Positions 4,842-33,258 of a DNA stretch of 64,000 nucleotides are shown here, in pieces. The DNA lies in contig OZ287757.1 in the NCBI GenBank assembly GCA_965649765.1, positions 30,504,001 through 30,568,000 of the forward strand, in the 5' to 3' direction. The notes beneath the pieces are model-generated. The model was given only the letters and a program-made list of their open reading frames with translations. It was not told the DNA's origin and did not search any database. How positions within the stretch are numbered: position 1 is the stretch's first letter; each line of letters starts with the position of its first letter. Origin of the DNA: Bispira polyomma (lineage: Eukaryota). The position numbers and the translations under genes were made by a program.

Positions 4842-4847
4842 ACCCGG
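4842..4847 (+). repeat. Left target-site duplication ACCCGG
   Basis: Identical hexamer at 26553-26558; 6-bp TSDs are typical of Polinton integrases. Confidence 0.95.
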
Positions 4848-5102
4848 AGTAGTAGCGTATTGCAGGATTTGAGGTACCCCCCGGAGGAGTCGTGCCACCC
4901 CCATGATCATGATAAGCCCCCCCGAAGATCTTATAAACCACCCCAATGAGTAGAATCGTGATGAGCCCCCCTGAAGATCTTATAAACCACCCCAAAGAGT
5001 AGAATCGCATGCCAACACGCTGTTCACTCTAAAATAAACACCGGTAGAAGTTGAATGAGTACAAACAAGCACTCGAGTGCAGTCACTCTAAAATAAAGAC
5101 CA
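4848..5102 (+). repeat. Left terminal inverted repeat (255 bp)
   Basis: Reverse complement of 26298-26552, with one mismatch seen by eye (GAATCGCATG vs GAATCACATG). Contains two ~45-bp subrepeats with TATAAA. Confidence 0.96.
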
Positions 5103-5199
5103 AACCTGATCTTAGAAAGGATGTACAACAGAATCATCTACCAAATAAACACCAGTAGAAGTTGAATGAGTATAAACAAGCACTCGAGTGCAGTCATTC

Positions 5200-5451
5200 T
5201 AAAATAAAGACCAGACGAGTTATTTATACACAGTTCCCTGTTGTTTTTGTGTTTCAATACTATTTTAAAATCACAAATTGCTGATCCTCTAATTTCTACT
5301 GTCTTCTCTTCATCACTGTCGATTGTGTATTCAGCCATAGTTATTTTCAGTTAAAATCTCGGAGGATCACTTGGAAATAAATACTGAATAAAAGCACAAT
5401 TTCCTTTTGTGTGTCTTTTATGTTCGAAAAAGACGTCTTCAAAAGAATCCC
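5200..5451 (+). repeat. 252-bp direct copy of internal segment 25423-25674 (5' end of the PC4-like gene plus 3' end of the BIR gene)
   Basis: Near-identical sequence in the same orientation; explains ORF 5138-5338, which starts MAEYTIDSDEEK like 25010-25561. Confidence 0.95.
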
Positions 5452-8040: not shown

Positions 8041-10154
8041 CTATAAATCAGTTTCATGACTTCCGTAACTCATATTTTCCAAGAAAATTGGTGATGTCTC
8101 CCTCCTATTTCGTTGTCTTTTGTGGTAACATTTGAAGAGACACAAAGTAACTCCAACACTAGTAAGGAATACCATGAAAGACAATCCAGTTGTCAAAGCT
8201 ATAACCCATTTATCTGTCAAAAGAGATATATTGACTGTTACATGTAACATATTATTGCAAGCTCTTACCGTAAAAGTTTGAATCATAAAAAAATTTGAAC
8301 ATTTTCGGTTATCCGAACGTTTTGTTTATTCGAACACTTTAAATATTTCTGGTTAACAGATCCCCAAAATGTTACATCAATCTTCAAATTTCAAAACTAA
8401 TTTGTACATCAAAACATTTTAGGTCAATCAAACATTTTGGTTTAACAACTCTCTAATGCTTGAAGAGACACAAACTTACTCCATCACTATTAAGGAATAC
8501 TACGAAATCCACTTGTTAAAGATCTAACCTATTTATCTGTCAAAACAGAGATGTATATGTCATATGTAAAATATCATTCCAAGGTCACATCATAAAAGTT
8601 AGAATCTTTTGGTTTTCCGAACGTTTTGTTTGACCTAAATTTTTCTCGGAGAACCGATATTCTATTCACAAAACTATGAAAATACATATACTAAAGCTTC
8701 TTTTAGGAACTTCAAAAGGCTTAACCTAATAAAATATTTGGTTAACAGGACAGTTCCAACATTCTATTCGTAAAACTATGAACTAAACAGAATATCTATA
8801 TTGAAGCTGTCTTTAGGAACTTTAACAGGCTTAACCTCATCAAATGTTCGGTTAGCCGAACAGTTTAATATTCTATTTTATAAAACTGCGAACTAAACAG
8901 AATACCTATACTGAGGCTTCTTTTAGGAACTTCATTGGGTGTGGAAGAACTTTTTGTAGAGCCATCCGTTATCAAAGTAAAGACAGAAGTGGTCATCTCA
9001 GTTGTTTTGGACGGTTCTAGAGTGCTTTGGTTTTCTAAAGACAAACACTTATCTTCATAATATTTACCTGCTTTTTATTGAAACACATTTATTGAAACAT
9101 ACATATACCGAACAAGTTCGGATAACCGAATATCCGAACATGTTCGGATAATCCGAAAGTTTGGTTAACCGAATATGTTCGGATAACCGGTTATCCGAAA
9201 TTCGGTTATCCGGAAATTTGATTATCCGAACATGTTCGGATATTCTATTCATAAAACTGCGTACTAAACAGAATACCCATACTGAAGCTTCCTCTAAGAA
9301 CTTAAAAACAAACAGTTATCTTCATAATCTTTATCTGTTTTATTGAAACAAACTCATAACTCAGTGTAATATAAGAAAATTAAGCGAAACTGGTAAAAGT
9401 CTTTCAACAAAAATTATTTCACTTTAAATTTGTTTAGTCACTATTTTTTAAAGATTTACCATGTTCAGTTGAAAGGTTAATGTCAGCAACTGTGGTTGTC
9501 CGAGATGGTTCTACACTTTCTACACTAAGTGATGTAGCAGACAAATCAGTTGTCTTGTCTACCGCACTGGTTGTAGCAGACAAACTGCTTGTCGCAGTCG
9601 ACAAACTAGTTGTTGTGAAAGCAGTCCCAACACTTGATATTTTACTGGTCAAGGCTTCGGTTGAAAGAACTTTTAAAAAGATTAAACAAAACATGCATAC
9701 AATCAATTATTATTCAATATACGTCAAATTTTAACGACAAGACAGAAAGACTTTTATCAATTCAAAACACTTGAATATTTCTATCATATGTACATATTTT
9801 GAAATGGGATTATTAAATGAATAAAAACCAACCTGCGCATCTACTTAATTCCAGTTTAACTTTCATTTGAGATTGTTTTTCATGAACAAGACTACAGTTA
9901 ATATTAACTGTCTGGTCACCCGAGAATAACTCCAAATTCTTGAATTTATCCAGGAAATCCAATTTTGTTACAAAGGAATTAGTAATAAAGAAGTATAACA
10001 ACTTCTCTGGATGAACCACACTAACATCAGGCTCACCAAAAATGTTCAAGCAATTGATTTGCCTTTCAAAACAGAAACATTTGTCATCTTTGAAGCAGTC
10101 ATTACTACAAACTTTTGCAATTAGCAACAACAGAAAAAACACGGAGACATACAT
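8041..10154 (-). CDS. Four-exon type I membrane glycoprotein (10154-9833, 9669-9460, 9034-8906, 8213-8041; 277 aa): signal peptide, LRRNT-like Cys cap, Ser/Thr mucin stalk, TM helix, short tail ending ETDL
   Basis: Three GT-AG introns, all phase 1; the spliced frame is open for 834 nt. It joins ORF-track fragments 9813-10154, 9434-9706 and 8041-8286 plus an unlisted 129-nt exon (ENQSTLEPSKTTEMTTSV...). Confidence 0.8.
9105..9243. repeat. Cluster of short palindromic repeats (TATCCGAACATGTTCGGATA and variants) in intron 2 of the membrane-protein gene
   Basis: Perfect 20-bp palindromes at 9131-9150 and 9223-9242, with degenerate CCGAA/TTCGG units between them. Confidence 0.85.
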
Positions 10155-11476
10155 AGTTGCAAAAATCGTTTTGAATGTGTAATACTTTTAGCTGTTCTGT
10201 TCAACTGAATTTCTAAGGAAGACTGACTCAACTTAGATATTTTTTGTTTTTTCTAGATTTTGGTTAGTAGTGTTTATATTGGCTTGAAGAAAATTTATTA
10301 CACACAATTGCAAAGGAGGGTATGTGTATTTGTGTGTGACTATGCCAACCAAAAAGAGAAAAAACCATTTCCGTGTAAACGATAGACATAAATCAAATAA
10401 ACCAACCTAAAGAAAATAACAAGTTTCGTTACATCTGAAAACCATAAGCACATTTTTTTTTTTTCCTTAGCTTCATACTCTCCTAATGCTACACATAAAT
10501 CAAATAAAGAGAGCTAAAGAAATAACCAGTTTCTTTACATCTGAAAACCATAAAAAAAATTTTCTTGCCTATTAACGTTTATCAAGTCTTTGTTAGATAA
10601 ACGTTAATTATACTAATATAAAGGCTACATCATGAACTATCTGTTATTTCTTTTGGATTTACAAACTATCAAAGTTGATTTATACTGAAAATTAATTCAA
10701 ATGCATAAAGACAGATTTTCTTCACTTCTCCATAAATAGAGTTCATTGAGTTAACTAGGCGTGTATGTTTGTTCTTTAGCTTAAATATTTTAGGGGATAT
10801 TAACCTTGTATCTGATAACAGTTTGAGGTTTATGATACACACTAGTGGATGATTGTATAGCTCTATCCTAGCTCCCCGGGTGCTCTGTGTATGTGTGTGT
10901 ATGGTAAACGTCTGCTTTATTATCTTATAGGTCAAAACCCATATGGGGAGTTGAGATGTGTGTAGGTGTAGTGCAAACATACCACTGCCTGTATACCTTC
11001 AATAAGTAGCTGGCTTCTATACATCATATATATGTGTGTTGTGAGTGAGTGTGTGTGGTATATGTATGTATTTGTTTTGGAGTGGAGATCAGACAATACT
11101 TCTTCACTATTTTCACTTTTTGGTGAAGTATAGAAGACTTTGACTTGTTTAAAGCAAATTATAGTATTACATATATGTGAAAGTGTTTGATTTCTTTTTA
11201 ACCAATTTGTTGATAATGTGAACTGTGTGTGTTTGATATTAGAACACATGGAGATTATACATATGACTGATTCTACTTCTTACATTTCAAAGGATTTGTG
11301 ATTAGTGTCAGTTTGGGAATACATGAAATAAAGGATTACATTCAAAGATAAACTGCAAAAGTAAGTGTATATTTTTGTTATTAAAACTATGTAAAATAAT
11401 CAACTTATTGTTTTGCAAAATAATTTAAAAGACCGCTTGTATCTGAAAAGTCTGTAATAACCAATTTACTTTCCAG

Positions 11477-11937: not shown

Positions 11938-12590
11938 ATGGAGATTCATACTCAGTCTAATTAGTCTTTACATACTCAGCCTAATTAATCTTTAAAAGAA
12001 AATTGTTAATTACTAGGAAACTGTCCATATCCAAGAAAAATGTAAAAGCTTACATTGAAAACACAAAAAATCTCAAAAATTCTGTTAAATTAAAATTTAC
12101 AGTGGATAAAAAATTCCCCGGTGTAATTCGTTTTTGAAATAAACTTTCAAAGGAATTACACCTCGGAATTTTATCTCGGAAAGAAACATGCTCATCCACT
12201 TGATAATATTTCAGATTAGTGGCTTCTACTATTCAATTTAGTTGTCAGTCTGTTTGACATGGAGATTCATACTCAGTCTAATTAGTCTTTACATACTCAG
12301 TCTAATTAGTCTTTAAAAGAAAATTGTTAATTACTAGGAAAATGTTAGAGAAACTGTCCATATCCAAGAAAAATGTAAAAGCTTACATTGAAAACACAAA
12401 AAATCTCAAAAATTCTGTTAAATTAAAATTTACAGTGGATAAAAAATTCCTCGGTGTAATTCATTTTTGAAATAAACTTTCAAAGGAATTACACCTCGGA
12501 ATTTTATCTCGGAAAGAAACATGCTCATCCACTTGATAATATTTCAGATTAGTGGGCTTTCTACTGTTCAATTTAGTTGTCAGTCTGTTT
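11938..12590. repeat. Tandem duplication of ~320-335 bp
   Basis: ATGGAGATTCATACTCAGTCTAATTAG at 11938 and 12259, each followed by near-identical sequence to GTTGTCAGTCTGTTTGAC. Confidence 0.9.
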
Positions 12591-12954
12591 GACGGCATCG
12601 TAAGGTTATTAGCTTCACTGTCTGTAGTAGTAGTAGTAGTGGTAGTCTTCTTCATCTTTAAACTGAAAATATAAAAAAAGAATAAATAATTACTTTTAAA
12701 ATATCCAAATTTTAGATAAGTTATTTTACAATAACAAACTTCTTTTTCGAGTCTATTATGTTGGAAAATGTTAACTGATAAATATGTAAACTCCTGGAGA
12801 AAGCTAAAGTTGATTATATTTACTTAACACTTACACCCATGCCAAATTGACCAAATATAGGAAGGTGAAGTATCAGTTAAACTTTAAAGTATGAGTTAAA
12901 ATTTAACATTCCTGTTAATAAGTCATATTTAGCATCAGTAATTTATTCATACTT

Positions 12955-14097
12955 TTAAACCACTGACCACTCTTCATGGTTAACGGCGTCTCTTGAAGTT
13001 ATACTTTCAAAGGGTTGTAGTACTTCTCGGTTCTTGGTTGTCGGTTTTGTTATTGGTCTTGAAGTGTTGTACTGAGCTGGTGTTCTTAACTCTGGTACGA
13101 TGGATACTCGGGCAGGTTCATCGGAATTAAACAAAACGGATCTCCTCGCTCGCATTCGAGCTTGGATTCTACCAATCCTGAAATGAAATAATAAAACAAA
13201 TATTTACTGGTGTTCTTAACTCGGGTATGATAGATACTAGGGCAGGTTCATCGGAATCAAACAAAAGAGATCTCCTCGCTCGCATTCAAGCTTGGATTCT
13301 ACCAATCCTGAAATGAAATAATAAAACAAATATTTACTGGTGTTCTTAACTCGGGTACGATAGATACTAGGGCTGGTTCATCGGAATCAAACAAAAGAGA
13401 TCTCCTCGCTCGCATTCAAGCTTGGATTCCACCAATCCAGAAATGAAATAATAAAACAAATATTTACTTAGAATTGTTTACGCAAATTCTATCAATCAGA
13501 ATATAAAATAATGAAACAAGTAACTACTTATGGTTATTGTGTGAAATATTACCTCTCTTCGTCTCGTCCTGTAGTGTAATGCCCCTTCCAACACAGAAGA
13601 TTACGCGTTTTCACATACTTCAGAGTCCTTCGAGTTCCTTCTATGATCAAACCTATGTATGTTAGAACGGCTATAGCAATAATAATCCAATTTGGTATGT
13701 TTATTTCATTAGAAATATCGATATCTGAATTAACCAAACTGTCGTCTTTGTTTTCCGTAGAGTCGTTATTTGTGTTATGTTTGCTGTCAACCGAATCGTC
13801 TTGGCAACCGCCTATCATTTCTATATGGGTATAGTCGGGACAGTTTAATGTAACACTATCCACAAATCTCACACTTTGTAAGTTCGGAAAAGCAAATAAA
13901 ACTTTTTTTACATCCACAATAGAGTCTGTGAACACGGCAGTTAAATATCTGACTGAGATAGAGAAAACCGTTCTTGAGTCTATGTTTTCACATTTTATAC
14001 TCGCTAAATCACACCCACAACCCGTGGGGCAATTCAACACTCCCATCACAACACAGCTTATAAACAACAAAACATAAATATTCCTTTGGAAAACCAT
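12955..14097 (-). CDS. Spliced type I membrane protein (exons 14097-13553 and 13177-12955; 255 aa): signal peptide, LRRNT-like cap, acidic stalk, TM helix, long cytoplasmic tail
   Basis: CPTGCGCDLASIKC cap; TM WIIIAIAVLTYIGLII; phase-2 donor GAG AG|gtaat joins acceptor catttcag|G ATT GGT in frame with ORF 12955-13155. Confidence 0.75.
13076..13468. repeat. Three tandem 130-bp copies of an intron-end/exon-start unit
   Basis: Acceptor positions at 13178, 13308 and 13438 (the last mutated CAG>CTG). The two distal copies carry a CGA>TGA stop. Confidence 0.9.
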
Positions 14098-14302
14098 CGT
14101 TAAACTAGATAAAATCAGTATATTGTTTTTATTTTTCCTCTAAACTTTTCTGCATAAACAGATCAAATTTACCTCCAAAATGTTTCACTCTAAAAGTTTT
14201 CTGCGTTTACTTTAACCGTTTAATAAAACAGTTTTGCGAAAAGTTAGGTGATTATTGAAATTGTTTGTCTGATTTTTGTTGTTTTATTTTTCATTGTTCC
14301 AG

Positions 14303-17300
14303 TTAAGACAGCACAAGAGAACTGAGACAATTCCAGGAAAAGAAAAAGCTATTGATACTTGCAACACGCTAGTTGAGGATCTGAAAGCAAAGAAAGTGTC
14401 AAAACAAGAGTGGTCCTGCAAAAAGTGTGGGATAAAGTTTCAACAACTACAAAAATGGATAAAACATAGAAAGAGTTGTGAAGGATTATTGTGTACTCCT
14501 AAACTGAAAATTCAGTGTGTTAATTGCAAAAAATTCTTTTCTCAAAAGTCGAATCTAAAAAGACATCAGCTAAAATGTGACCTTACAGATGGTAAAGAGC
14601 CTACCTTTAAATGTGTGAAATGTACGAAGGTGTATATATTGAAATCTAATTATTTGAAACATCTAAAGAGTTGTGGGTTTTTAAATTCTCTCACTACAAA
14701 AAAAGTTTGTTGTAGTATTTGCAAGGAAAAATTTTTCAGTAGTAAGGATTTATACTCCCATAGATTAAATCAACACGGTGGTGGAGAGCAAAATATTGAC
14801 GATACTGGTAATTCAGACAGATTTCAGTTAAATTCTCCGCCTTGGTTGAATGAAGCTGGTGAAAATATAAATCCAGAGTTAGAAAAAATTTATAAAACAA
14901 ATGAATCACACATATTCGCTCCTCACCAAACAGATAGTGTTGTGAAAAAATATAATTTTCCTACTGAAAATTTGAAAGGAGGGGTTGAAGAAATTATGAA
15001 ACATATAGAAAAAATATTTCAAAATCAAAACTGAGGATTCAAAATTAATATTAATTTAGATTTTATTCTGAAGAACAAGAAATCAGGTAAATACAGATAT
15101 TACATTCCTTATGCTAGTTCTTATCTATTTCCGAAACCTTACATCATTTCCAGACATACCAATTTGAGAGTTTTGAAAAACAAACTCAAGAAATTAAACC
15201 CCAGTGAATATATTTTGAATAACAGACCCAACAGTCGGTATATTCCAGAATATATAACCAATATAAATTTTGATGTGAGCTTAATGGATTACGTATTAGG
15301 TAATCCTTCAGACTTCCCAGAATTTGTGAAAAACTGTAGAAGCGTTTTTACATTTTTAAAGCCTCCAAAAACAGGAAAAACATACACTGACAATATGTGT
15401 ATTTTTCGTTGTCTTGCATTTCACGAGATAAAAAATAGAAAGAGTTTAGACACTTTAACTAGAAGTAAGTTTTTTGAATGGCTTGATTATAAATCTTACA
15501 AAGAACCAAAACGTTTTAAAGGGGTGACATTAGAAGATATTCCCGATTTAGAAAACTGTTTTCAAATCAATATTTCTGTTTTCCAGCTTTTAGAAAATTC
15601 ATGTGTAATCACACATTATAATTCTAGAGGAACTTTTGACAAATCCATAGATTTAGATATGCAAAATCATCATCTATCATATGTCAATAATTTGAGCTTG
15701 TACGCCAAAAAGTATCAATGTCAAGCATAATGTTTTTCAAGAACTTGAAAAGTATAACATTTTTGTCTCAGTAGAAGACAGATTTTGTCCTTATTTTATC
15801 ACTTTTGACTTTGAGTCAATTCTTCAAAAGAAAAGTCAAGTCAAAACTCAGAAGTAACAAAATTAATGTGGAGAGAAAAACACATTCCAATATCAGTCGG
15901 TGTAGGGTCTAATGTTGAAAATTTTGAGGAAGGAAAATGTTTTGTAGATTTTAATATGGATAAATTATTAGCAAAAATGGTTGAATATATGGAACAGATT
16001 TCAAACAAAGTCAAGACCTTACAAATGTTTAAATACCATTCATGCTTTCAAGAACTAGATAGACTTTTAAATGAGTTACAATCACTTGAAACACAAAAAG
16101 ACATTGAACAAAATAGTGAAAATTTTGGAAGTGAAGAAGATGAAGTTCCTTCTGTTTCGTTTCAAAAAAGATTCAAAAAGCACAACTGTTTCGACAAAGC
16201 TATTGATAATTTAATAAAAACTAATAATCTTCAAGTAGAATACAATAATTATAGTGATGTCAGTGAATCTGAAGACGATATTTTTGAGAATGAAGAACAA
16301 GAGAATTTCCTTGAAAATATCTTTCATGAAAAACCTCAAGCTTGTGAAGAAAACATAGCTCACAAATTGTGCTCTAGAACTCGTTTCTTAAAAACTGTGA
16401 GAAAAAAAATCCAAACTTTGAAAGAGAGACTAGAATCTTATTGTGAATGCACACCAGTCTTAGGCTTTAATTCTTCAAATTATGATCTTAATTTAGTCAA
16501 ATCTAAACTGTGTAAACATTTGAAACTTGATGATACACAGAACAATTCTTTTACAGTGAAAAGAAATAATGCTTATTTAGTTATAGCAACCAATACTTTG
16601 AAATTTTTAGATATCAGTCATTATATAGCCCCTGGATTTTCTTACTCTCAATTTTTAAAAAGTTATAATGTAACAGAGCAAAAAGGATACTTTTGTTATC
16701 AATATCTCTCAAAACCCGAAGTTCTTGAAGAAACAAATTTACCTCCTTATGAAGCCTTTTACAGTGATTTGAAATCTTGTAATGTTTTAGAACGTGACTT
16801 GTTAGATTGGTATAAAACAAACAACATACAGTTAGTACAGCAAGATTTAGAATTCAACTCGTATGATAATCCCTCTAAATATGTGAATTCATCTATTTCT
16901 TATTTAAATTTGACAACTGAAAAATGTTTAAAACTTTGTTGTTTGTGTGAAAAGATCCAATGTGTGTGTAATAGTAGACCTCTTACTGGTTTTGATAATT
17001 ATTTAGATTTATTAAAAATTTGGAAAGTGAATGATATGAAATCAGTTGAAGATTTATTAGTCTGGTATAATTTGAAAGATATCAACCCCTTTACAGAAGC
17101 AGTTGAAAATTTACAAAAGTATTACAAAGAAAATAATATTGATCTTTTTAAAGATACAATTTCAGTGCCTGGAGTAGCTAGACAAATGCTATTTAAATCA
17201 AAAGATGCTAATTTTCAGTTATTTGATCGTCAAAATGCAGACCTTTACAGAAAAATAAAGCAATCCATTTGTGGGGGTCCTTCTATAGTGTTTACAAGAG

Positions 17301-19592
17301 CAATGAAAGAAGGACAGAAATTAAGGGGAGGTCATACAAAATGCGAAACTATCGTCGGCTATGACGCGAATAGTCTTTATCCAACCTCGTTACAAAATAA
17401 TATGCCCTGTGGAACTGTAGTAAGGAGACATGAAAGCACTGGTTATAAACCAGAAGTTCAAACAAAATATTTAGACATGTTTATTTGGATGGATCGGGTA
17501 TCAGAACTGAGACAGATAAAAATTTTACACAGATTAAATAGTGGGAAAGAACATTATGTGATGGGTTTCAGAGTTGATGGTGTATTTGGTAATGAAATAT
17601 TTGAATTTTTAGGAGATTATTTTCATGCTTGTCCTAAATGCACTAACAAATTAAAGTGTAACAAACCAAAATCTTGGTTAGTTAAACAAGAACAAAGATA
17701 CCAGAGAACTATTCTAAGAAAAGAATATTTAGAAAGTTTAGGATATACTGTAAATGAAATTTGGGAGTGTGAATATAAAGAAAAGTTTAAAAATTGTGTT
17801 CAACACATTCAAGAAAGATATTTACCCAAATATTACAGTTCTCATAAAAACGGGTTGTCATTAACAAAAGTATTAAAAGACATTAAAAACGGTGAATTAT
17901 TTGGTTGTGCCAAAGTTGATATTGAGACTCCTTCTAAATGGACTGAAGATTTTGTTCAGTCAATCTCACCTCAGGAATATTACTCTGAATTTAGCCCTAT
18001 ATTTTGCACCACTGACGTACCTATGAGTGTTATTGGTGAACATATGACAAATCACATTCAAAATAATGATTTATCTATGGAGAGTAGGCGATTATTAGTA
18101 GGCGGGTTGAAAGCAAATAAGATTATGCTTGCTACACCTTTACTACAATGGTATTTAAAACACGGAATTTTAATAACTAGAATTTATGAAGTCGTAGAGT
18201 TTTCACCCATACCTTGTTTCGCTCAATTTGTTTCTGACGTCACAGAAAGTCATAGGATCGGAGACAAATCTCCTCATTTAGCTTTAATAGGGCAAACTGC
18301 AAAACTTTTGAATAATTCCGCTTATGGATCATGTCTTATGAATAAGGAAAACTTTATGAACATCAAATATGTGAAAGGTGACTCCAGCGAAAATTGAAAT
18401 AAATAAACCAGAATTTCGAAAAGCTACTTTGTTAGATGAAAGATACTATGAGATAGAAGCAGCCAAACGCAGAATTTGTTTAGATGTACCAATTCAAATA
18501 GGGTTCTTTATTTTAAATTATGCAAAATTACGTATGTTAGAATTTTACTATGATAATTTGTGTGAATACATTCATAGAAATAGATTTGAGTGTATACAAA
18601 TGGACACTGATAGTGTGTATTTTGCAATAGCTGGAAAGTCTCTTGAAGACGTAGTTTACAAGCATAAAAAACATGAATTTCAAAGAAAAATCAAAAATAA
18701 TTGTGGTGATTTTGAATTAAAAGCTGATAAAGACCACTATTTCCCCCGAGATTGCTGTACTAAGCATAAACAATACGATTTAAGAACACCGGGACTTTTC
18801 AAAAAAGAAAGTTCGGGAAAAGAAATGATTGCTTTATGTTCTAAAACATATGTACTAGCTGAAGAAATTGGATTCAAACTCTCCTGTAAAGGTGTTAATA
18901 AGAAATCGGTTAAAGATCCTGTCAAAATATTTCAAGACGTTTTGATAACACAAAATGTCCAAACAGCTTTAAATAAAGGTTTTAGAGCTAAAGACAATTC
19001 GATGTTTACATATTCTCAAGAAAGAATAGGTTTTAATTATTTTTACTGTAAACGCAGAGTTTGTGATGACGGAATACACACAGTACCTTTAGATTTGGTT
19101 TTGTCACCGTGGCCAAATTATGAAAGGCATGTGTTTTTCAGAGATTTTACTAACCCTTTATGTATTTCTTACAAATTTCCTTGTAGATATAATGAGAGAA
19201 CATTTGAATCAATAGAACATTTTATGTATTTTGCTTTTGCTCGTTTTCACAAAGAAAAATCTATTGCACTTTTAATTCAAAAATCATTCCACAAAACCAA
19301 AATTCTACAATTACTGAAGAATATAAAGATAAGTTTTATTTGGTTTGATAAACTGAGAGAGCTTTTACAACTGAGTCTAAAGGAAAAATATGAACATTGC
19401 AATTTGTTTAGACAAGCACTTGATAATATTTTGTTTCAAGAAATTATCTTTGCTGACAAGGATAAGTATTTAGGTTGTGGAATGGAATGTAGAATAGCCG
19501 AACTAACCGATAGTGCAAAATACCCTGGTCAAAATGTACTGGGCGAACTGTTGATAGAGTTAAAAAATACAAAAAACACACACAATGTTTAG
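14303..19592 (+). pseudogene. polB: Protein-primed family B DNA polymerase polyprotein (zinc fingers, terminal-protein region, vOTU-like protease, exonuclease, polymerase with VSR-like insertion, C-terminal NADAR-like domain); disrupted
   Basis: Motifs FDFES (~15800), GFNSSNYD, GGPSIVF, YDANSLYP, KLLNNSAYG, MDTDS, TPGLFK. In-frame TGA at 15032-15034; frame breaks at ~15730, ~15855 and ~18380. Confidence 0.95.
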
Positions 19593-19957: not shown

Positions 19958-20401
19958 TTAACCTGTGTGTTTATAAAAGAGATAAACCAACTGATCATTG
20001 TACAACAAATCTTTTGAAAACATATTTAAAATGTTTGACATGGAAAAACCTCTAACTCTAAAATAACAAAAAAACAAACAATATTGACCACACAAATTTG
20101 AAACATAGCTTTGACACCTCTTGACATTGAATTTGTACTTATGGCTTTGTAAGCTCATATAAGACTTTAAATAGAGATCTGGAAATTTACCAATAGGATC
20201 AAAATATTCAGTGACTTCATCATTGTGATTGTAAAGCACAACCCAATGACTTCCTGCTTTCTCACTTGTGTCTAGATTGACTATGTAAAATCTAGGTTTT
20301 TTTGATTGTAAAGGTAATAAATCCTTTGGTAAGACTCCTCCATAACTTTCTGAAATGTAGGGGTCCTTTAACATATACCGCTCCAATTGAAATGTATTCA
20401 T
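19958..20401 (-). CDS. Adenain-like (C5 family) cysteine maturation protease
   Basis: IVNLD...GSHWV, EYFDPIG and Q...SNLCGQYC give the His/Asp/Gln/Cys catalytic set; adjacent to the MCP. Confidence 0.95.
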   Translation of the reverse strand: MNTFQLERYMLKDPYISESYGGVLPKDLLPLQSKKPRFYIVNLDTSEKAGSHWVVLYNHNDEVTEYFDPIGKFPDLYLKSYMSLQSHKYKFNVKRCQSYVSNLCGQYCLFFCYFRVRGFSMSNILNMFSKDLLYNDQLVYLFYKHTG

Positions 20402-21678
20402 TATTGAATTTTGATATTTCTAGCTTTATCAACCAATACCATTCCTGGAAAAATTGAATAAGCAATCACCATTAAAGATGTACTAGTGGCAGAACCGAAC
20501 TTGAGCTGTAACCTTGTGTGTCCTTTTTTAAGTTTTCCCATTAACTCATTGTCTGTTTCTCCTTGAATGTCAAAAACGAAAAGACCATACCCATTTGAAT
20601 AATCAGCTCTACTAATAAAATTTCCAGCGTGGTGTGGGTATTTATTTGAGAATAAAGTAAGGTATGACGAGACATAATCTCCTGTTGAAAAATTAGGTGT
20701 TAGAGCTTGCTGAGGTACACTTTGTCCATCTACACTTAGTTCTAAGTAATTAACACTCTCATTAACAAAATTGTAAGGGTTTAATAAAAAATCACCAGTG
20801 TATGCGTCTGTTTTTACAATACCTAAGATAAGTTTTGAGGGTACTTCACCATGGAAAATATCATCTGATGAAAAGGTGCTTACACCTTGAGGAATAACAA
20901 AAGTTTTTATGTTGGATTTCCAAATAGGGTAAAGAGCTGGAGCGTATGTTAAAGCTTCATTATGAGCTAAGATTATAGAATCACTGACTTTCACATGACA
21001 AGCTTTAAAAACAGCTTCTGTTATTGTTACTTTGTAAGCTTCTAAATCTCTTGTCATCATTACAAATTTATCAGAAGAAGGGAATAATTTAATTATTATT
21101 TTAACCCCGTTTAAAATTGGTCTTTCTTGCTGAGATATATCCATATGAATAGGTTCTTCTAAAGTGACTTCTTTACCGGAAGCTGTAAAAGATGTCCTAG
21201 CTGTCAAACCAGGGTTATTTCCAGGTGGGGTTGCATCCATAACGCCTGAATCCTTGTAATATAATTCACTTTGAAGTTGAGATTCTTTTACTTCCATTCC
21301 GTATTTTAAAAGCACATCAAAAATTGATTTATAAGGGTAGTTTACTCCTACATCCGGAGAAACAACTTTATCTTGAAGCATGACGTCGACTTGACGAAAA
21401 AGAGAGTGTAAACTTAAATTTACTAAACCCACCGCATTATCTGCTGCAATCGGAGTTCCATCCGATTTAAGAATTTTTGCTTTTATTTTTAATCGGGATT
21501 TATTTAAATCAATATATTCAGCACTGGTGCCTGGTATTCGAAATTCTATAGTAGAACCATGTGAAATAGTAGAAGTGGATTGGAATTCTATATATTGGAT
21601 TTCATCTACAGCCGCTTCTACATAAGGAGCTTGAAAAAGTGCTAATTTAGACGAATAAGACAGTTCCTGATCACTCAT
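20401..21678 (-). CDS. Major capsid protein (double jelly-roll; Polinton PY / 'hexon')
   Basis: Intact 425 aa with Polinton MCP hallmarks (IEFRIPG...EYIDL, LHSLFRQVDV, YPYKS, ESQLQSELYYKD, NPYNF, GYGLFVFD). Confidence 0.93.
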   Translation of the reverse strand: MSDQELSYSSKLALFQAPYVEAAVDEIQYIEFQSTSTISHGSTIEFRIPGTSAEYIDLNKSRLKIKAKILKSDGTPIAADNAVGLVNLSLHSLFRQVDVMLQDKVVSPDVGVNYPYKSIFDVLLKYGMEVKESQLQSELYYKDSGVMDATPPGNNPGLTARTSFTASGKEVTLEEPIHMDISQQERPILNGVKIIIKLFPSSDKFVMMTRDLEAYKVTITEAVFKACHVKVSDSIILAHNEALTYAPALYPIWKSNIKTFVIPQGVSTFSSDDIFHGEVPSKLILGIVKTDAYTGDFLLNPYNFVNESVNYLELSVDGQSVPQQALTPNFSTGDYVSSYLTLFSNKYPHHAGNFISRADYSNGYGLFVFDIQGETDNELMGKLKKGHTRLQLKFGSATSTSLMVIAYSIFPGMVLVDKARNIKIQ

Positions 21679-22021
21679 TTTGTTTGTTTTTTAGAAATTC
21701 TTTTCTTTTTAATTTTAGAAGACTTCTTTTTCGAAGAAGTTTTAGTAACACTCTTTCCTTTCTTTCGTCGTTTATTTGATTTCTTTTCCTTTTTAAGACT
21801 GAGTTAATAATTTGATATTCTTTGGTTTAAATACACCGGCTTCTTTGAGCTTCCTCTTTAAATCAGATTTGGCTTGAGCCACTACAGCCTGTGTGGGCGT
21901 TATCATTTTAATTTCACCGCTTCCTACTTGAGGTTTAAATACATAAATTCTTCGTTGATATGGAATATTTCCATTAGCCATGTCTGTAAAATGTTTGGTC
22001 CAATAATTATTATCAGTCATT
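21675..22021 (-). CDS. Small basic virion core/protamine-like protein candidate with QVGSG protease-site motif; Lys/Arg-rich tail interrupted near 21793
   Basis: MTDNNYWTKHF...PQVGSG...; sequence at 21680-21790 encodes a K/R/S-rich run beyond the called stop; located between penton and MCP. Confidence 0.5.
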
Positions 22022-22424: not shown

Positions 22425-23554
22425 GAAAATTTTTTTATTTCATTTTCATCTATCCAAGTATCAAATTTAGGTCCCCAACCTTTCCAACGAACAAGTAGGC
22501 TTATTTTACCTTTAATTTTTTTTTCTGAACTATCTTTTCTATATCATACTGAGTGTCTTGACTTACATTAACCTTTTGAAGTTCAGAGGTAGAAAACTTA
22601 TCAATTATAGGCTCGTTATGGAAATCTTTTACTTCATATTTCTGAATACCTTGATTTAAGTCTCTTGTGGATATAATGAATAATTCGTCAGTCCATTTTT
22701 GATCTGATTCTTTGTTATAGACACTTTGTAGTTTTCTCAAGCGAACAATATCACCTATTTTGAACTTGTATAAAGGGGTATTTCTTTGTGATTTAGGTAA
22801 AGTGGTTTTTTTTCTTGAATTTGAGTATTTTAGGTAGTTTTTTTTCATACTGGATTTTCCATAAAATAGGGTTTGCAACTTCAAGAGCTTCTTTAGGAGA
22901 CATATTAATTGTACTATGATATGTTTTATTATAACTATCAGTTAAGTTTTGTAAAACATCAATCCATTTCCTAGTTTTGTTATATTCCATATATCTAGCT
23001 ATTTTCATTTTTAAGGTACGAATAACTCGTTCCGCATAATTAGCTTTGGAGTGTTCTGAAGTTACAATGTGTTTCACATTATTTTCTTTGATGAATTTAT
23101 CACCTAATCCTAAGTACTCTGTCCCACGGTCGCTTCTCAGGACTAATGGTTTGTTTTCTTTAAAAACAAGTTTCAACGCATCCACCATTTCTTTTGAAGT
23201 CAATGTTTTAAGTGGTACCGTGTACAAATAATGAGATAAAATATCTATAAACACGGCTATGTATTTGTAACCTTCGTTTTGTGAAGCAAACTTTTCATAA
23301 TGGGCTGTATCTGTGTCTTGCATATAGCCCTTAAAGGGTACTATAACTTTTGGTCTCTTGAATTTTCTGATAACTTTCCTATATAGAGTGTAGCTATTTT
23401 GTTTACTTAACCAATTTTGAATAAATCCTTTAGAAATATCAGACCTTTCCTTTTTAACTAAATTATAAAACTTTTGTAACCCTGCAAACGAACTTGGGTT
23501 TTATGGATTAAAATACATTTTTTGCAGATAATCTTCTTTCTCAGAATCACCCAT
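22421..23554 (-). pseudogene. Retroviral-like (rve) integrase with C-terminal chromodomain; disrupted
   Basis: Starts MGDSEKEDYLQKMYFNP*NPSSFAG (stop at 23501-23503). DDE residues in QDTD, SDRGTE and AERVIRTLK. Frameshifts near A-runs at ~22840 and ~22520. Ends LVRWKGWGPKFDTWIDE. Confidence 0.95.
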
Positions 23555-24203: not shown

Positions 24204-24800
24204 TCATTGATATACTATTATAGGTAATTCAGTTGGAAAAATATTAGTTCTTAATCTGTAAGCTTCGTTACTTTTAGGGGATAAATCAAGAATCAAATAA
24301 CCGTAGGGATTTGTGAGAGCGTCAATATAAGCTTGTTTCAACAAACTTTTCATACCTATTTGTTGTGATAAAATATTTACTTGTTGAAGATTTCTGGGGT
24401 TCTTTAACAAAACGGTATAAGCTGTATTCAAAGTAAGAGTTCTGGAACATTTACCTTGATAAAACAAATTTTGATTTATGTAAATAACTGTAATATTGTT
24501 GTGGTGACTTATTTGGGTAAATAACTTTTCAGCTTCTTTGCTGTTGGCTACTTCGTGTTGAAGGTCATCTAAGCATATTATATTATGATTTGAGTCAAAT
24601 ATAGTTCTTATTTTTTCCAAATTTGGCAAACCTTCCACAAATTCTATGTTTAAATTTTTTTCTATGTCATCAAATATAGGCTGCCAAACAGAATAACAAT
24701 AAAGAATTTTTGTAGGTGGATTTTCAAACATAATATCTTTTGCTTTTAACAATTTATACAACCAAGTAGTTTTACCACTACCAGTCATTCCTGATATCAT
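24204..24800 (-). CDS. A32/FtsK-like genome packaging ATPase
   Basis: Walker A GMTGSGKT, Walker B ICLDDLQ, SHHNNITVIYINQNLF, PYGYLILDL, RLRTNIFP. The frame extends upstream (EVVKFECPSTW) to an ATA at ~24836 that may be a mutated start. Confidence 0.95.
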   Translation of the reverse strand: MISGMTGSGKTTWLYKLLKAKDIMFENPPTKILYCYSVWQPIFDDIEKNLNIEFVEGLPNLEKIRTIFDSNHNIICLDDLQHEVANSKEAEKLFTQISHHNNITVIYINQNLFYQGKCSRTLTLNTAYTVLLKNPRNLQQVNILSQQIGMKSLLKQAYIDALTNPYGYLILDLSPKSNEAYRLRTNIFPTELPIIVYQ

Positions 24801-25009
24801 CCATGTTGAAGGACACTCAAATTTAACAACTTCTATGTTAACACGTGTAAACCAAAATAATTAATGAAGAGAATTACTTTATTAGGAAATAATATATATA
24901 TAACTATAAACATACAAAACCAAAACTACGATATTCATTTAATCAAGTATTTATACAAACTAAAATCACACAAATCATACCAAGGAAAAGTCTGAGCGTA
25001 TTTTAAAGT

Positions 25010-25561
25010 TTATAAACTATTCACTGTTCTTTGGTGTTCTTTATCCCAGTCTTCTGATTCGTTTTCCTTGACTTCTGAATCTTGTTCTTCTCCATCAGGC
25101 TGAGAACATAGAGGACATGAGAAAAAATCTTCTTGGTTTTGATGTGTATAGAAAATCTGGGGGTGATCTTTTTCGATTTGATTAAAAATATCCAATAACC
25201 TAAACCACTGAACGTATTTCAAAGATATACCATCCAATGTTGCTAGTTGTTGACCTCCAAATTTGAAGAATCTACGAATTTGTATACATTGAAATGGAGA
25301 CTGTAAATAAACAAAAACATCGTTTTCAAGACAAACATAAAAATTTGTTGGTTCTTTTTTATGACATAACCTAATGAGTTTGCTTGATAATTGTTCTTTA
25401 CTTTTTATCAAGTTAAAATATTTAAAATAAAGACCAGACGAGTTATTTATACACAGTTCCCTGTTGTTTTTGTGTTTCAACACTATTTTAAAATCACAAA
25501 TTGCTGATCCTCTAATTTCTACTGTCTTCTCTTCATCACTGTCGATTGTGTAGTCAGCCAT
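25010..25561 (-). CDS. PC4-like ssDNA-binding/transcription cofactor protein with CPLC motif and acidic tail
   Basis: CIQIRRFF...LATLDGISLKYVQWFRL closely parallels the PC4 consensus IDIREY...KGISLNPEQWSQL. Confidence 0.7.
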   Translation of the reverse strand: MADYTIDSDEEKTVEIRGSAICDFKIVLKHKNNRELCINNSSGLYFKYFNLIKSKEQLSSKLIRLCHKKEPTNFYVCLENDVFVYLQSPFQCIQIRRFFKFGGQQLATLDGISLKYVQWFRLLDIFNQIEKDHPQIFYTHQNQEDFFSCPLCSQPDGEEQDSEVKENESEDWDKEHQRTVNSL

Positions 25562-25573
25562 AGTTATTTTCAG

Positions 25574-26017
25574 TTAAAATCTCGGAGGATCACTTGGAAA
25601 TAAATACTGAATAAAAGCACAATTTCCTTTTGTGTGTCTTTTATGTTCGAAAAAGACGTCTTCAAAAGAATCCCATTGATGTAAAATCACCTTACACCAT
25701 GCGCATTTACAGCTGTCTCCTATTCCTGTGTAAAGAAATCCAGCTTTAGCTAATTGTTCAGGACGGACTGGGTGACATTTAGGCCATGTCTTAAAAGTTT
25801 CAATTCTCTTGTCATATTTATAAAAATATTCTTTCCCAAAGGAAAATTCTGGGCATGTATCCCTTTGACCTCCTAAAAATATAGAAGATCCTCTGCTTTC
25901 TTTCTCCCAACAAGATTTAGAAGAAGAAGCTGGTGTACAGAGTGAAAATCCACTGGTAACAGCTTTATTACAAAATAACCCGTCGCTGGTTGAGTCTGAA
26001 ACGTCTGTTCTTTCCAT
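25574..26017 (-). CDS. Single-BIR inhibitor-of-apoptosis-like protein (no RING)
   Basis: RIETFKTWP...LAKAGFLYTGIGDSCKCAWC...W......EHKRH...CAFI is a complete CCHC BIR signature. Confidence 0.95.
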   Translation of the reverse strand: MERTDVSDSTSDGLFCNKAVTSGFSLCTPASSSKSCWEKESRGSSIFLGGQRDTCPEFSFGKEYFYKYDKRIETFKTWPKCHPVRPEQLAKAGFLYTGIGDSCKCAWCKVILHQWDSFEDVFFEHKRHTKGNCAFIQYLFPSDPPRF

Positions 26018-26037
26018 GATTCTGTAAATTTATCAAT

Positions 26038-26075
<38 letters not shown>

Positions 26076-26297
26076 ATTAGAAACAAGCACAAAAAAAAAA
26101 AAATCCTAAGTATATTATTGGTTAGTTTTTAACCAATTAAATTATAGCAATTATAATTATATAATAAAATTTATTATATTCAAAATGTTGATTTTGATGC
26201 GTGATTCATTAAACCTAAATAAAGGAAAATACATATCTCAATAGACTAAAATCCTTGGGTTGCTTGTTTGTACTCATTCAACCTTTACATCTTTGTC

Positions 26298-26552
26298 TGG
26301 TCTTTATTTTAGAGTGACTGCACTCGAGTGCTTGTTTGTACTCATTCAACTTCTACCGGTGTTTATTTTAGAGTGAACAGCGTGTTGGCATGTGATTCTA
26401 CTCTTTGGGGTGGTTTATAAGATCTTCAGGGGGGCTCATCACGATTCTACTCATTGGGGTGGTTTATAAGATCTTCGGGGGGGCTTATCATGATCATGGG
26501 GGTGGCACGACTCCTCCGGGGGGTACCTCAAATCCTGCAATACGCTACTACT
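26298..26552 (-). repeat. Right terminal inverted repeat (255 bp)
   Basis: Reverse complement of 4848-5102; followed by TSD ACCCGG at 26553-26558. Confidence 0.96.
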
Positions 26553-29500
26553 ACCCGGGCTTCTCTCCACAATTTATTTGTGGGATGGTAAAGTGGTTTT
26601 TTGGGAAACAAACAGTTTATATTTAATTGGATGGAGATCTATTTTTAAATTTTAGGGGACGTTTATTATTGTTTATTATTATTATTGGCAACAAATGGTT
26701 AGTTCTTATATATAGTATTAGTTAAACAAGTGATTTAATTAAACAAAAGTCAATATTTCGGTGAATTGGTTATATCTCTTCTTTATGAACTTTCGGGGGA
26801 CTCTTTGTTATGAATTATTGTGTGTAAGAAAAAAATGTAAACTCTTGTGAAGCTGAACTAAGATATGTCAGTGACAAAACTATATCATAAATTTAGATTG
26901 GTTTTGTGTCATAATTTGTGCAAATAAAGTGATCCTAGTTCACTAAAACAATAGGTCACTTAGTAGAACACATAGCTCTGCCAAGGTACCACAGTACAAA
27001 ACAGTGAAAATAAATATTCTCTGGATCTGTCCTTCTACCCGGATCCGCAACCCTAAAAGACATTAAAAGTCAATTGATGTTTGTACTTGAACAGTCTATA
27101 GAAAGGTTTAATTTAGTGCTTTGAATATCAGATGAAGGTAGATTTGTTCCGACTATCTAACTGTAAATACAATAACAAAGTCGATCTGATAATGGGCACA
27201 TTGTATAGTATATTTGTATTATATATTATTGTGACATGCTTTATTGATGTGAGTCATGTAAAGCACAAAAGCTGTATCAATGAACAATCATGTGTCACAC
27301 CTTGTTCTCCAAACATGTGTTCGATCTTACCAATGAACCTAGCATCATTAGTAGGAGTCCAACTGGTGAGCTTGAATTACCAGACACATTCACCCACTGG
27401 GAGTTAAACCAGGGACCCATTCTGAACACCAGACTGACTCCCTTACCACTCGGCCATAGGAGGCCACATGCATCTACTTTCTTACGGATAGTAAGCTTAC
27501 AGAGCTGACTTATATTCTATTTTAGTTACCAGTTAACCTTTCTATATATATGAAAATATTGTTGTATAGAGTGTCAAAAAATATTTGGGGAGAGAGCATG
27601 GATGAAGAGACAACAAAGCTGATTTTAGGTCATTTTTTAGTTGAACCATGTCTGTCTTGTGAAATTTTCAAAAGCAGTTTTTCATAAACTGTAGGTGGGT
27701 TAAAATCTAACATACAAGAGATAGCAAAATGATCACTTATGCAGCCAGAATTTACAATACTATTGATGCCATAAAAGTCTGAAGAGGTTATAAAAAAATC
27801 TAGAATATGACCATGAATATGGGTTGGAAAGGAAACATGCTGTATGATTCAAAAATGGATTTAAATTGAGAACTATAATCATCATCTGTGTCCAAATGGA
27901 TGTTGAAATCACAACATAGTATTAGTTATAGGCAAGGTTGAAAGAAAACCAACCAAGGACATAAACTTTACAAGGAATTCAGATATAGAAGAACCTGTGG
28001 GTCTGTATATAACCACAATATTCACTTGGTGATTTAACCAACAAACAGAAGCAACAAGATGCTCAAATGATACAACTGGTGGGAATTTTTAACACTTGGA
28101 AGGCATCAATTCCCTGATAAAGGAAGGACTGTCCTGGGGTCTGATGTATCTTTCAGTGAGACCAAGTATGTCGCAAGATTGACCGGACAACAAATCGGCA
28201 ATCAAAGTTGAACCTTAACATAGAAACTAAACAAGTTAAAACAATGGAATTGTTTGCTGAAACCACTCAAAGACATCACTGTTAAGCTTAGTGGCCAAAT
28301 CTATTGTATTAGTTCCATTATACCTTCCTCAATTCAAAAGTTCCTAAATGTCCACCTTTCTCACAAAGAGAATTAGTCAAAATGTATGAAGTAACCAAGT
28401 AACCCAACCCACAATATAGGTAAAGCAATAGACAAACTTGGCTACATCTAAATCTACTGAGAACCCTGACCAACCAATATTGTCAGATTTGTCTGGAGAT
28501 TCCTTAAATGCTGTCCCTGTTAAAAGGGAATGGGTTGATTACGCTGACATACCTACTGAACATAAAATAAAAAAGCTCAAAATTGGTGGATACATTGATC
28601 CTGATGATGTAATTGGTTGTGAAGTACAAATGGGGGCAAACAATCTGCCCAAGTGAGTGGACTCAGATTGAAATATACAGATATTTAACTGAACCATTGG
28701 ATATTCAGTTACTAATAACAAATTTTTTGCCAGTACCACAGTGGTGGGGTACACATGGATTGCTTTGTATACCTGCAACTTCAACACCATCAGAGAGGGT
28801 GCTCACCCCAACAGTAACATTGTTACAAAAACCATTTGAAAATTACAGTAATCCAATCATCCTTTGTTGACGTTTGTTCTCACTATGTTATTAAATTCAT
28901 GTAACTGTGTATGTAAAGTGACTACTTTTTTTGTCTGAATTCCAGAGTTTGTTTATATCATTAATTCATACAATGTTTCAAAGTGCTGAATAAATCTTGT
29001 CTTGAATTTGTGTTAAGTACCTTATGGCACATCATCAGTAGCCACTAATGACACAACTCAAAGATGGACTGCAAGAGCCCATAATAATAACAAAGCGGTA
29101 TCTTATACAGAAGTAGAAATTCACTGACTCCCCTACTCTTCCTCCAACAATGAATCCACCGCATTTTAAAAATGGCACTTCTCTTCTAATGTTTAGATTT
29201 TGGCTTGACTTTCTTGTCAAAGTAATACTTAAGACAGCAATCATGTTCATCCAAATGAATAAAAGCTTGCAAATGACACACGCATGCTGTAAAACAGATG
29301 TAGAGCCGCTATTATTCATTGGCCATTACACAAAAAAACACATTAACATAATATACCAGGTTTCCCAAATATGGTTCAGTTGACGGCACAATCTATAACA
29401 TATGTAAGGTTAGGGTAGATTAAAATTGAGAGGTTATTGACGCTGATGTGGTCACATATCTAGAAGTGGATGAATTGAAAGCTTGCTGCTTGGCTAGCAA

Positions 29501-31499: not shown

Positions 31500-33258
31500 A
31501 CTTAATCTTCAGGACATGCTTTTTGTATTTCTCAAATAATCTGTATGGAACTAAATAGGTTAGCAGGTACATAATGCATTGCCAATGAGTACTTGTGTCT
31601 GTGCTGATACGTCTCTGTGTACTAGCGTGTACCCTACGAGTGTTAGATTTGATGTTCTGCACGAACCGCAAGGTCATAATAAACAGCATGTTGCTCTAAG
31701 AAATACTTTATTTAACAGTGTGCCAAGACCAACACATGGTGTCAGATGTAAAACTCATATTCAATCACGCAGTAAATTTATGTTTATATGTACTAATATT
31801 GAAACACTGTCCAGTACTACAGCCACACCATATCAGTCAGTGTGAGCGATAATAGATACCTGTAAGTGACTAGAGCTATATAACAAGTACAGGAGGTTCA
31901 GTAATGACATCTGAATTAAAAAATCAATTGAGACTAGCAACACTGGATAGTAGGACCAGAGACAATATTTCAGTGAAGTGGAAAAACTTTAAACAGGCAT
32001 TTCAGTTATACATGACGGCAATCGATTACGATTCTAAACCTGATGTACAAAGAGTAGCAATCCTGCTTGCATGCATTGGCAAAAATGCAAGGGAGGACTT
32101 TTCCACATTTGACTTTGGCACCACTACGGTACATGGGCATGAAGTTGCAGACTCCAAAATTCTAGAGAAGGTACTAGCCAAATTTGAGGCATTTTACGTT
32201 CCAAAATCCAACAGAACTTTGAAACGCTCAAGGTTTATCGGATGTCAGCAAGGACCGGATGAGAATATTGATGCCTTTCTCACAAGACTTAAAGTTAGGG
32301 CTGAGACTTGTGAATTTGGCGCAATAAGGGAATCCATGGCGTGCGATAAATTAGTCTGTGGTGTCAAAGACCTGCAGTTAAGAGAGAAACTGTATTCCAA
32401 GGCAGATTTATCACTTTCAGATGCAGTGAGTTACGCTAAGGCAGCTGAATACGTGGAAGAACACAAATCGGCTATAACAGGCGAACCATCCATAAACCTT
32501 GTGAAAAAAGACAATACGGCACAGAAACCTATGAGCAAATGCAGGTACTGCTGTGACCGCCACATATTCGTCAAAGAAAAGTGCCCTGCTTTCGGTAAGC
32601 AATGCTGTAAATGTGGACAGACAAATCACTTTGCATCTGTATGTAAATCCAAGACACGGCCTCAAAAAGGTAGAAAACACATAAAAATGGTCGAGGTGGA
32701 CAATGAATCTGATTACTCCAGTGATGATAGTAAGTTTCACGGAAGTTTGACTGTAGAGTCGATCGCGAGAACTCAAAGGATTGGGTAGTCTCACTAATTG
32801 TGCACAATACAATATTACCTATGAAACTAGATACAGGGGCACCGGCCAATGTCATCAGCAAATCTGACTTCAATAACAATGACAAAAGGCCAAAATTACA
32901 TCATACCATACAGAAATTGAAAGGATATAATGGGAAAGAGATCAAGGTATATGGCAAAACCGTTCTAGAGGTGAAATGTAAAGGTAAACACCACAAGCGA
33001 CTGTTTTATGTAGTAGATGGTACAGACAAGACACTTTTCTCTAAAGACGCATGTGTAAAATTAGACCTGGTTAGATTACTATACCAAGCAGGTGGAAACT
33101 ACCAATGGGTATATCAGGAATGCAAAGACATGTTTGATGGAAAACTAGGTGAATTACAAGGAGAGTTTGATGGAAAACTAGGTGAATTACAAGGAGAGTA
33201 TAAAATAGAGCTACAAGAAGATGCAGAGCCTGTAGTTCACACCATGTTATTCTCATGA
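31500..33258 (+). mobile_element. Truncated Ty3/Gypsy element: LTR 3' end, PBS, gag, aspartic protease; ends before RT
   Basis: AATAAA at 31678, then ...ACA|TGGTGTCAGA PBS-like sequence at 31738. Gag (31904-32788) has two CCHC-type knuckles; protease LDTGA in 32800-33258. The left LTR boundary is not resolved. Confidence 0.9.
31904..32788 (+). CDS. Gypsy gag
   Basis: WKNFKQAFQLY, QGPDENIDAFLTRLK..AETCEFG, DKLVCGVKD..LREKL, CCKCGQTNHFASVC. Confidence 0.88.
   Translation: MTSELKNQLRLATLDSRTRDNISVKWKNFKQAFQLYMTAIDYDSKPDVQRVAILLACIGKNAREDFSTFDFGTTTVHGHEVADSKILEKVLAKFEAFYVPKSNRTLKRSRFIGCQQGPDENIDAFLTRLKVRAETCEFGAIRESMACDKLVCGVKDLQLREKLYSKADLSLSDAVSYAKAAEYVEEHKSAITGEPSINLVKKDNTAQKPMSKCRYCCDRHIFVKEKCPAFGKQCCKCGQTNHFASVCKSKTRPQKGRKHIKMVEVDNESDYSSDDSKFHGSLTVESIARTQRIG

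Follow-up and report, generated by a model that had tools for sequence, protein, structure and literature searches.

In the YbiA family of hydrolases, two residues of the Phytophthora enzyme, K50 and W133, hold the pyrophosphate and the adenine in structure 8BAU, and the equivalents of this Lys and of E125 are essential in the E. coli C7 NADAR (PMC11543638). The Lys and the catalytic Glu are likewise essential in SCO5665, where, according to the available text of PMC12945103, even conservative changes of the Glu abolish activity, and the available text of PMC11257639 describes the Lys as essential in AdfN. Among NADAR subfamilies the catalytic position varies between Glu, Asp, and His. NADARs are widespread in animals and in animal viruses, and the available portions of PMC11125620 and PMC12945103 give their eukaryotic substrates as not known. 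For eukaryotic RNA viruses, it has been argued that NADARs counter host ADP-ribosylation, with soluble ADP-ribose derivatives also proposed as substrates (PMC9503650, available text). A NADAR in LINE ORF1 has also been published, in the Tx1 LINEs of oyster (PMC12477816, available text).

Here we report that, in the window (i.e., the whole stretch of 64,000 nucleotides of Bispira polyomma contig OZ287757.1 that was analysed), the pPolB polymerase of a Polinton ends in a NADAR domain. We found no description of a pPolB-NADAR fusion in the openly accessible literature on NADAR/DUF1768 with Polinton, Maverick, or adintovirus, and the words "polinton" and "adintovirus" are absent from the text of PMC9503650. 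The fusion is real and conserved and, as far as searched, apparently undescribed.

Results

The fusion is held by a 21.7-kb Polinton/Maverick (Table 1), which has terminal inverted repeats (TIRs) with AG-rich ends (AGTAGT), a 6-bp target-site duplication (ACCCGG on both flanks), and genes for a pPolB, an rve integrase, an ATPase-like protein, and a protease-like protein. The 429-aa ORF had no Pfam match; by its position and size it is probably the major capsid protein. A Pfam scan of 17 ORFs of the element found no ADP-ribosyltransferase (ART). The polymerase gene of the window copy is broken by in-frame stops near 15034 and 15730-15815 and by a frame change near 18381-18385, a point absent from the preliminary description of this DNA; therefore, it has no single frame that could encode the complete fusion protein.

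Table 1. Coordinates of the Polinton and its genes, in positions of the window
Feature	Position	Strand	Evidence
Left TIR, 258 bp, starts AGTAGT, preceded by ACCCGG at 4842-4847	4848..5105	.	Repeat search
pPolB gene, in pieces, NADAR at end	14306..19592 (about)	+	ORFs, Pfam, homologues as single frames
Junction LDLVLSPW, short, conserved, from polymerase end to NADAR	19089..19124	+	Copy alignment, model
NADAR-fold domain at C-terminus of pPolB, catalytic site degenerate	19125..19568	+	Pfam, fold match, residue map
Adenain-like cysteine protease	19958..20419	-	Pfam Peptidase_C5, E 0.0016, below cut-off
429-aa ORF, probable major capsid protein	20401..21690	-	Position and size
Retrovirus-like integrase core	22793..23500	-	Pfam rve, E 2e-8
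Packaging ATPase-like P-loop protein	24204..24860	-	Weak P-loop families including Pox_A32, E 0.02
Right TIR, 258 bp, followed by ACCCGG at 26553-26558	26295..26552	.	Repeat search

Several other features were observed. Close to the right terminus of the element lie a BIR (IAP) domain gene (25574-26029, -) and a weakly PC4-like gene (25010-25573, -), a fragment of which occurs again at 5138-5350 (-). Two small cysteine-rich ORFs (13549-14139, - and 9813-10187, -) have signal-peptide-like starts and no Pfam match, and tandem arrays of 333 bp (2 copies) and 130 bp (3 copies) occupy 11938-13468. The palm region of the polymerase contains a weak restriction-endonuclease-like (MTES_1575) insert at 17687-17815 (+), of a kind reported for Polinton pPolBs. 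Outside the element, an ORF at 31874-32788 (+) encodes a zinc knuckle; from this motif we presume it to be Gag-like and probably part of an LTR retrotransposon.

From the MDTDS palm motif (18600-18614), the frame at 18375-19592 (+) continues without a stop through KRRVCDDG (19050-19073) and into a C-terminal domain of 150 aa, with the stop codon at 19590-19592. On Pfam NADAR (PF08719; curated cut-off 35.1 bits), the sole family matched, the isolated domain scored 36.0 bits (E 1e-8; match 19170-19568), and the domain of homologue L035 scored 55.1 bits. An AlphaFold2 model obtained from 18 natural copies of the domain (pLDDT 82, pTM 0.80) had 8BAU and 2B3W as its top rows in a Foldseek search of the PDB (E ~1e-2, probability 1.00, TM 0.63-0.65), and VIA-align gave this predicted model Z scores of 12.9 and 12.6 for YbiA/8BAU, the following row scoring 2.9. 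In a fold search against a viral library, almost every named row at the top was a NADAR protein, and the predicted models have the helical core and two small sheets of the YbiA fold. In a PDB sequence search neither the domain nor its alignment found a match, NADAR structures being reached by fold search only, and the ESM Atlas gave NADAR clusters at 0.94, with a recognition value below the Atlas threshold. The last ~150 residues of the window's Polinton pPolB are a NADAR domain, fused in frame. This was the central claim of the preliminary description, and it was borne out in family and in fold by the profile and AlphaFold/Foldseek comparisons suggested there; the domain motifs it quoted are all present (SIEHF, 19209-19223; IIFADKD, 19443-19463; PGQNVLG, 19524-19544).

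Three junction residues (L1, P7, and W8) are invariant in the 18 copies, and block pLDDT across the junction was 81-95 in the model of a natural homologue. When a natural 792-aa stretch of polymerase plus NADAR was modelled with AlphaFold2 (pLDDT 91, pTM 0.87), fold searches with the homologue model retrieved phi29 polymerase and, separately, YbiA/8BAU. Since the NADAR makes up one fifth of the modelled chain and pTM exceeds ~0.8, the domain is predicted to pack on the polymerase in a fixed position.

The fusion is not unique to the window copy. A search of the host assembly (1.04 Gb, 75 contigs) gave 973 candidates; 150 were scored and all 150 matched, with identities from 99% to ~40%. In five genomic copies the NADAR stands at the end of an open frame of 1799-1823 aa, and all 20 more distant polymerase loci sampled, hand-picked from a longer genome search, carry a NADAR-like tail (19 at E < 0.01). 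For 11 copies from different subfamilies (55 pairs, unsaturated in 46 for the domain and 40 for the polymerase part), median dN/dS was 0.25 in the NADAR domain vs. 0.16 in the adjoining polymerase part; mean identity among copies was 49% and 64%, respectively. No stop or large deletion was found in the domain across subfamilies 40-99% alike, and dN/dS was 0.1-0.5 at saturating synonymous distances. The fusion is conserved under purifying selection. A one-copy accident or read-through is ruled out by this recurrence, by the open frames of ~1,800 aa, by selection, and by the public relatives described below. In the same genome, LINE ORF1 proteins (L051-L080, on many contigs) end in a canonical NADAR with its catalytic residues intact; 150 of 2147 such candidates were scored, and 150/150 were above the cut-off.

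Beyond the host, molluscs, lancelets, and echinoderms are the sources of the named proteins in this polymerase family. Among the best 120 of 632 long public pPolBs, 13 have a recognisable NADAR tail, 11 a shrunken remnant (judged homologous by its junction and closing motif; of the three tested, Pfam called none), one a DUF4326, and 95 no tail domain. A full HMMER search returned 190 representatives; 149 new ones were listed, 33 of them with the polymerase C-terminus just upstream and five more with the junction motif only. Pfam flags NADAR on several deposited pPolBs, and the fusion is therefore detectable. Some searches were negative, i.e., a word-index search of longer proteins with the domain alone (0/905 candidates) and a scan of viral contigs with the domain (0/14 stretches); since other searches found fusions, these results reflect limited sensitivity. 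In annotated phages, only stand-alone NADAR matches were found, none covering the fusion.

In a tree of 66 polymerase ends (68 rows less two that were too short), 49 of 50 carriers fell, together with five non-carriers, on one branch supported at 99/94, the bootstrap being not settled. The remaining carrier, P0041, has two tandem N-terminal halves of NADAR on its pPolB and lies outside this main clade; grouping all carriers as one clade was not rejected by the AU test (p 0.107). Support of 99 for one Polinton NADAR clade vanished once the junction columns were removed, and the tree of the NADAR core only was without resolution. We read the pattern of carriers as a single capture followed by later losses, which the AU test permits without proving it. 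Since non-carriers occur inside the carrier clade and most related pPolBs are without the domain, it is dispensable over evolutionary time. The C-terminal slot used by NADAR elsewhere is occupied by DUF4326 (PF14216) in P0019, a separate capture of another ADP-ribose-linked domain.

To describe the active site we use the residue numbers of the Phytophthora enzyme (Pnp; PMC11543638), transferred via a LINE NADAR aligned to 8BAU and a profile alignment; the register was fixed by copies with full-length loops (L101, L102) and by intact fusions, aligned directly to 8BAU. All 18 copies of the window's clade keep the ribose-binding Glu (E43) and W89, together with a basic residue at the R79 site and D/E at the D130 site. 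In the same 18 copies, the phosphate-binding Lys (K50) is replaced by L, F, or M, the catalytic Glu (E125, in the last strand) by F or Y, and the pocket Trp (W133) by L. The clade also shares an extra invariant Glu (18/18), placed three residues ahead of the catalytic site, which is not conserved in other families. At the E125 site, an acid or His is absent from every family sampled in the host genome, and other families lose other residues too.

A wider comparison set 48 non-redundant fused domains (44 with polymerase upstream and four with the junction motif only, rows < 135 aa and the shrunken class being excluded) against 115 other NADARs, a few of which are probably Polinton fragments. 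E, D, or H occupied the E125 site in 3 of 45 filled rows of the fused domains vs. 90 of 113 of the others, and the combination of E43, K50, and an E125-type residue was found in 3/48 vs. 64/115; as the fused sample was seeded by a decayed query, intact forms may be under-counted in these figures. The core is mostly kept among fused domains (W89 site, 45/48; closing G-x-N-x-x-G element, 40-42 of 44), and most of the 48 rows retain four to five of eight pocket residues, the catalytic site alone being almost always lost. The adenosine-binding stretch G78/Y84/D86 is not conserved. Net charge (median +1.5 in the fused clade vs. +1 in other eukaryotic-type rows) is not raised and thus gives no support for a DNA-binding role.

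The three intact fusions are P0211 and P0254 (both with Glu at the E125 site) and P0286 (His). They score 64-101 bits on Pfam NADAR and have pPolB sequence upstream; all are fragments on contigs of 1.3-4.2 kb, with only the flanking sequence on those contigs visible. P0254 could be aligned residue by residue with the 8BAU site. When P0254 itself served as the query, 83 new proteins were obtained, of which six more have a NADAR-like tail; on inspection, none of these carries the catalytic set. In the host genome, 20 further loci picked with an intact query also had no intact site.

Judged by these residues, the domain of the window's clade is a pseudo-enzyme, without the catalytic Glu, the phosphate-binding Lys, and the pocket Trp. 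The caveat of the preliminary description, that the Glu of the EH motif and the Asp are kept and the Lys, catalytic Glu, and Trp substituted, proved correct. Its proposal that the domain erases ADP-ribose from DNA is not supported for the window's element, in which the K50 and E125 equivalents, essential by mutagenesis in the NADARs tested, are replaced throughout the clade. A survey of PolB-NADAR fusions, as it recommended, shows them to be recurrent and conserved in Polinton pPolBs, with the catalytic set almost always missing; the eraser and counter-defence reading would fit only the rare intact relatives (P0211, P0254, possibly P0286) and probably the ancestor. Relatives of the P0211/P0254 type, with the full canonical set, would still be active erasers.

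Discussion

Our preferred reading, which we hold to be likely with a fair margin of doubt, is that the tail is a NADAR fold without catalytic residues, serving as a non-enzymatic structural or docking appendage, predicted to be held fixed on the polymerase. An ancestral pPolB would have captured an active NADAR in place of the short acidic tail seen in sister polymerases, the original benefit being probably protection against base ADP-ribosylation. Catalysis would then have disappeared from most lines, the ribose pocket being taken up by an aromatic residue; the domain may have persisted since then by packing on the polymerase end and stabilising it, or by providing a surface for docking. The relatives form a series from intact site to decayed site, shrunken remnant, and no domain.

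The pocket residues that are invariant or nearly so in the window's clade (E43, W89, and the R79 and D130 sites) also fit residual ligand binding. The domain might then act as a reader or decoy that no longer cuts and still binds ADP-ribose, ADP-ribosylated DNA or RNA, or a host transferase, in order to sense or shield the fork. The selective loss of the catalytic site from a pocket otherwise half retained across the fused domains, the purifying selection, and the DUF4326 of P0019 in the same slot, a domain linked to ADP-ribose processing in the available text of PMC9503650, are all consistent with such a role. However, the clade has lost both residues that contact the pyrophosphate and adenine in 8BAU, the adenosine-binding stretch is not conserved, pocket losses differ between families, and 11 relatives retain a shrunken remnant only; we consider a reader or decoy possible and on balance unlikely.

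Graded decay and repeated loss among the relatives, and the faster evolution of the domain relative to the polymerase, could instead mark a functionless relic, heading for deletion and kept only because the polymerase would suffer from frameshifts or misfolding at its C-terminus. We regard this as improbable, given the low dN/dS at saturating distances, the absence of stops and large deletions across diverged subfamilies, and the presence of the domain at every distant polymerase locus sampled, although clean truncation is possible, as the existence of non-carriers indicates. An active eraser with a rewired site, in which other acidic residues strip ADP-ribose from the bases of replicating viral DNA, could draw on the variable catalytic position of NADAR subfamilies, on the invariance of E43 and the extra Glu in the clade, and on the canonical set of its close relatives P0211 and P0254, but is very improbable, since the Lys and the catalytic Glu were essential in SCO5665 (PMC12945103, available text), the extra Glu is not conserved outside the window's clade and, given strand alternation, would point away from the pocket, and the host search, itself without a control signal, identified no writer enzyme.

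Among the sequences nearest to the intact Polinton domains (43-45% identity) are the NADARs of picorna-like RNA viruses (L121-L126, e.g., L123:238-6750), which have an intact site and stand directly after the RdRp. Because of these viruses, the DUF4326 of P0019, and the argument made in PMC9503650, the original benefit of the capture was plausibly counter-defence, and picorna-like RNA viruses are a possible donor. An origin from the host LINE ORF1 NADARs is not favoured, the LINE rows not being nearest to the Polinton domain. In the available text of 10.64898/2026.03.31.715305, NADAR did not reverse the guanine-N1 mark of PARP15, and the usual animal PARP mark is thus no obvious substrate. A Scabin-like family search of the genome found no pierisin/Scabin-like transferase, but gave no signal in any control either. 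As a tentative scenario, more doubtful than not, marine invertebrates might ADP-ribosylate the bases of Polintons and RNA viruses, and a Polinton clade might have added a polymerase-tethered NADAR eraser that cleans the template at the fork; the P0211/P0254 type would still be active and the window's clade its reader or structural descendant. If true, it would be the first case of a DNA virus with a de-ADP-ribosylase tethered to its polymerase.

The attachment of a NADAR to a replicative DNA polymerase suggests that its original substrate was modified viral DNA, and the intact fusions (P0211, P0254) and the decayed ones form a ready test pair. Among these Polintons all stages occur naturally, from enzyme through pseudo-enzyme and remnant to loss. 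For the window itself the significance is more modest, i.e., a pseudo-enzyme in a broken proviral copy.

Among known systems, the element resembles described Polintons/Mavericks in its TIRs, AGTAGT ends, 6-bp duplication, integrase, ATPase, protease, and phi29-like polymerase; the available text of PMC11161782 gives the pPolB architecture as TP-vOTU-Exo-Palm with no C-terminal NADAR, and the word NADAR occurs 0 times in that of PMC8502044 on adintoviruses; the fusion adds a domain to Polinton polymerase architecture. With the YbiA-family hydrolases (E. coli YbiA, 2B3W; Phytophthora NADAR, 8BAU; PMC11543638 and the available text of PMC11125620) the domain shares fold, Pfam family, E43, W89, D130, and G-x-N-x-x-G, whereas its catalytic Glu, K50, and W133 are replaced and it is fused to a DNA polymerase, the YbiA-type proteins being free-standing. 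The phage anti-DarT NADAR AdfN/gp30.3 is likewise virus-encoded and is the model for counter-defence against DNA ADP-ribosylation; in contrast to the fused and degenerate Polinton domain, AdfN stands alone, is active, and faces the writer DarT1 (PMC11257639, available text). Tx1 LINE ORF1 and the Ectocarpus Gypsy Pol (PMC12477816, available text) are further cases of a NADAR recruited by a eukaryotic mobile element; LINE rows differ in keeping E43, K50, and E125 (8/8 aligned), and other sequences lie nearer to the Polinton domain. The layout is shared with RNA-virus replicases (PMC9503650; L121-L126), in which the NADAR also stands straight after the polymerase domain, and these keep the intact catalytic set that the Polinton form of the window has lost.
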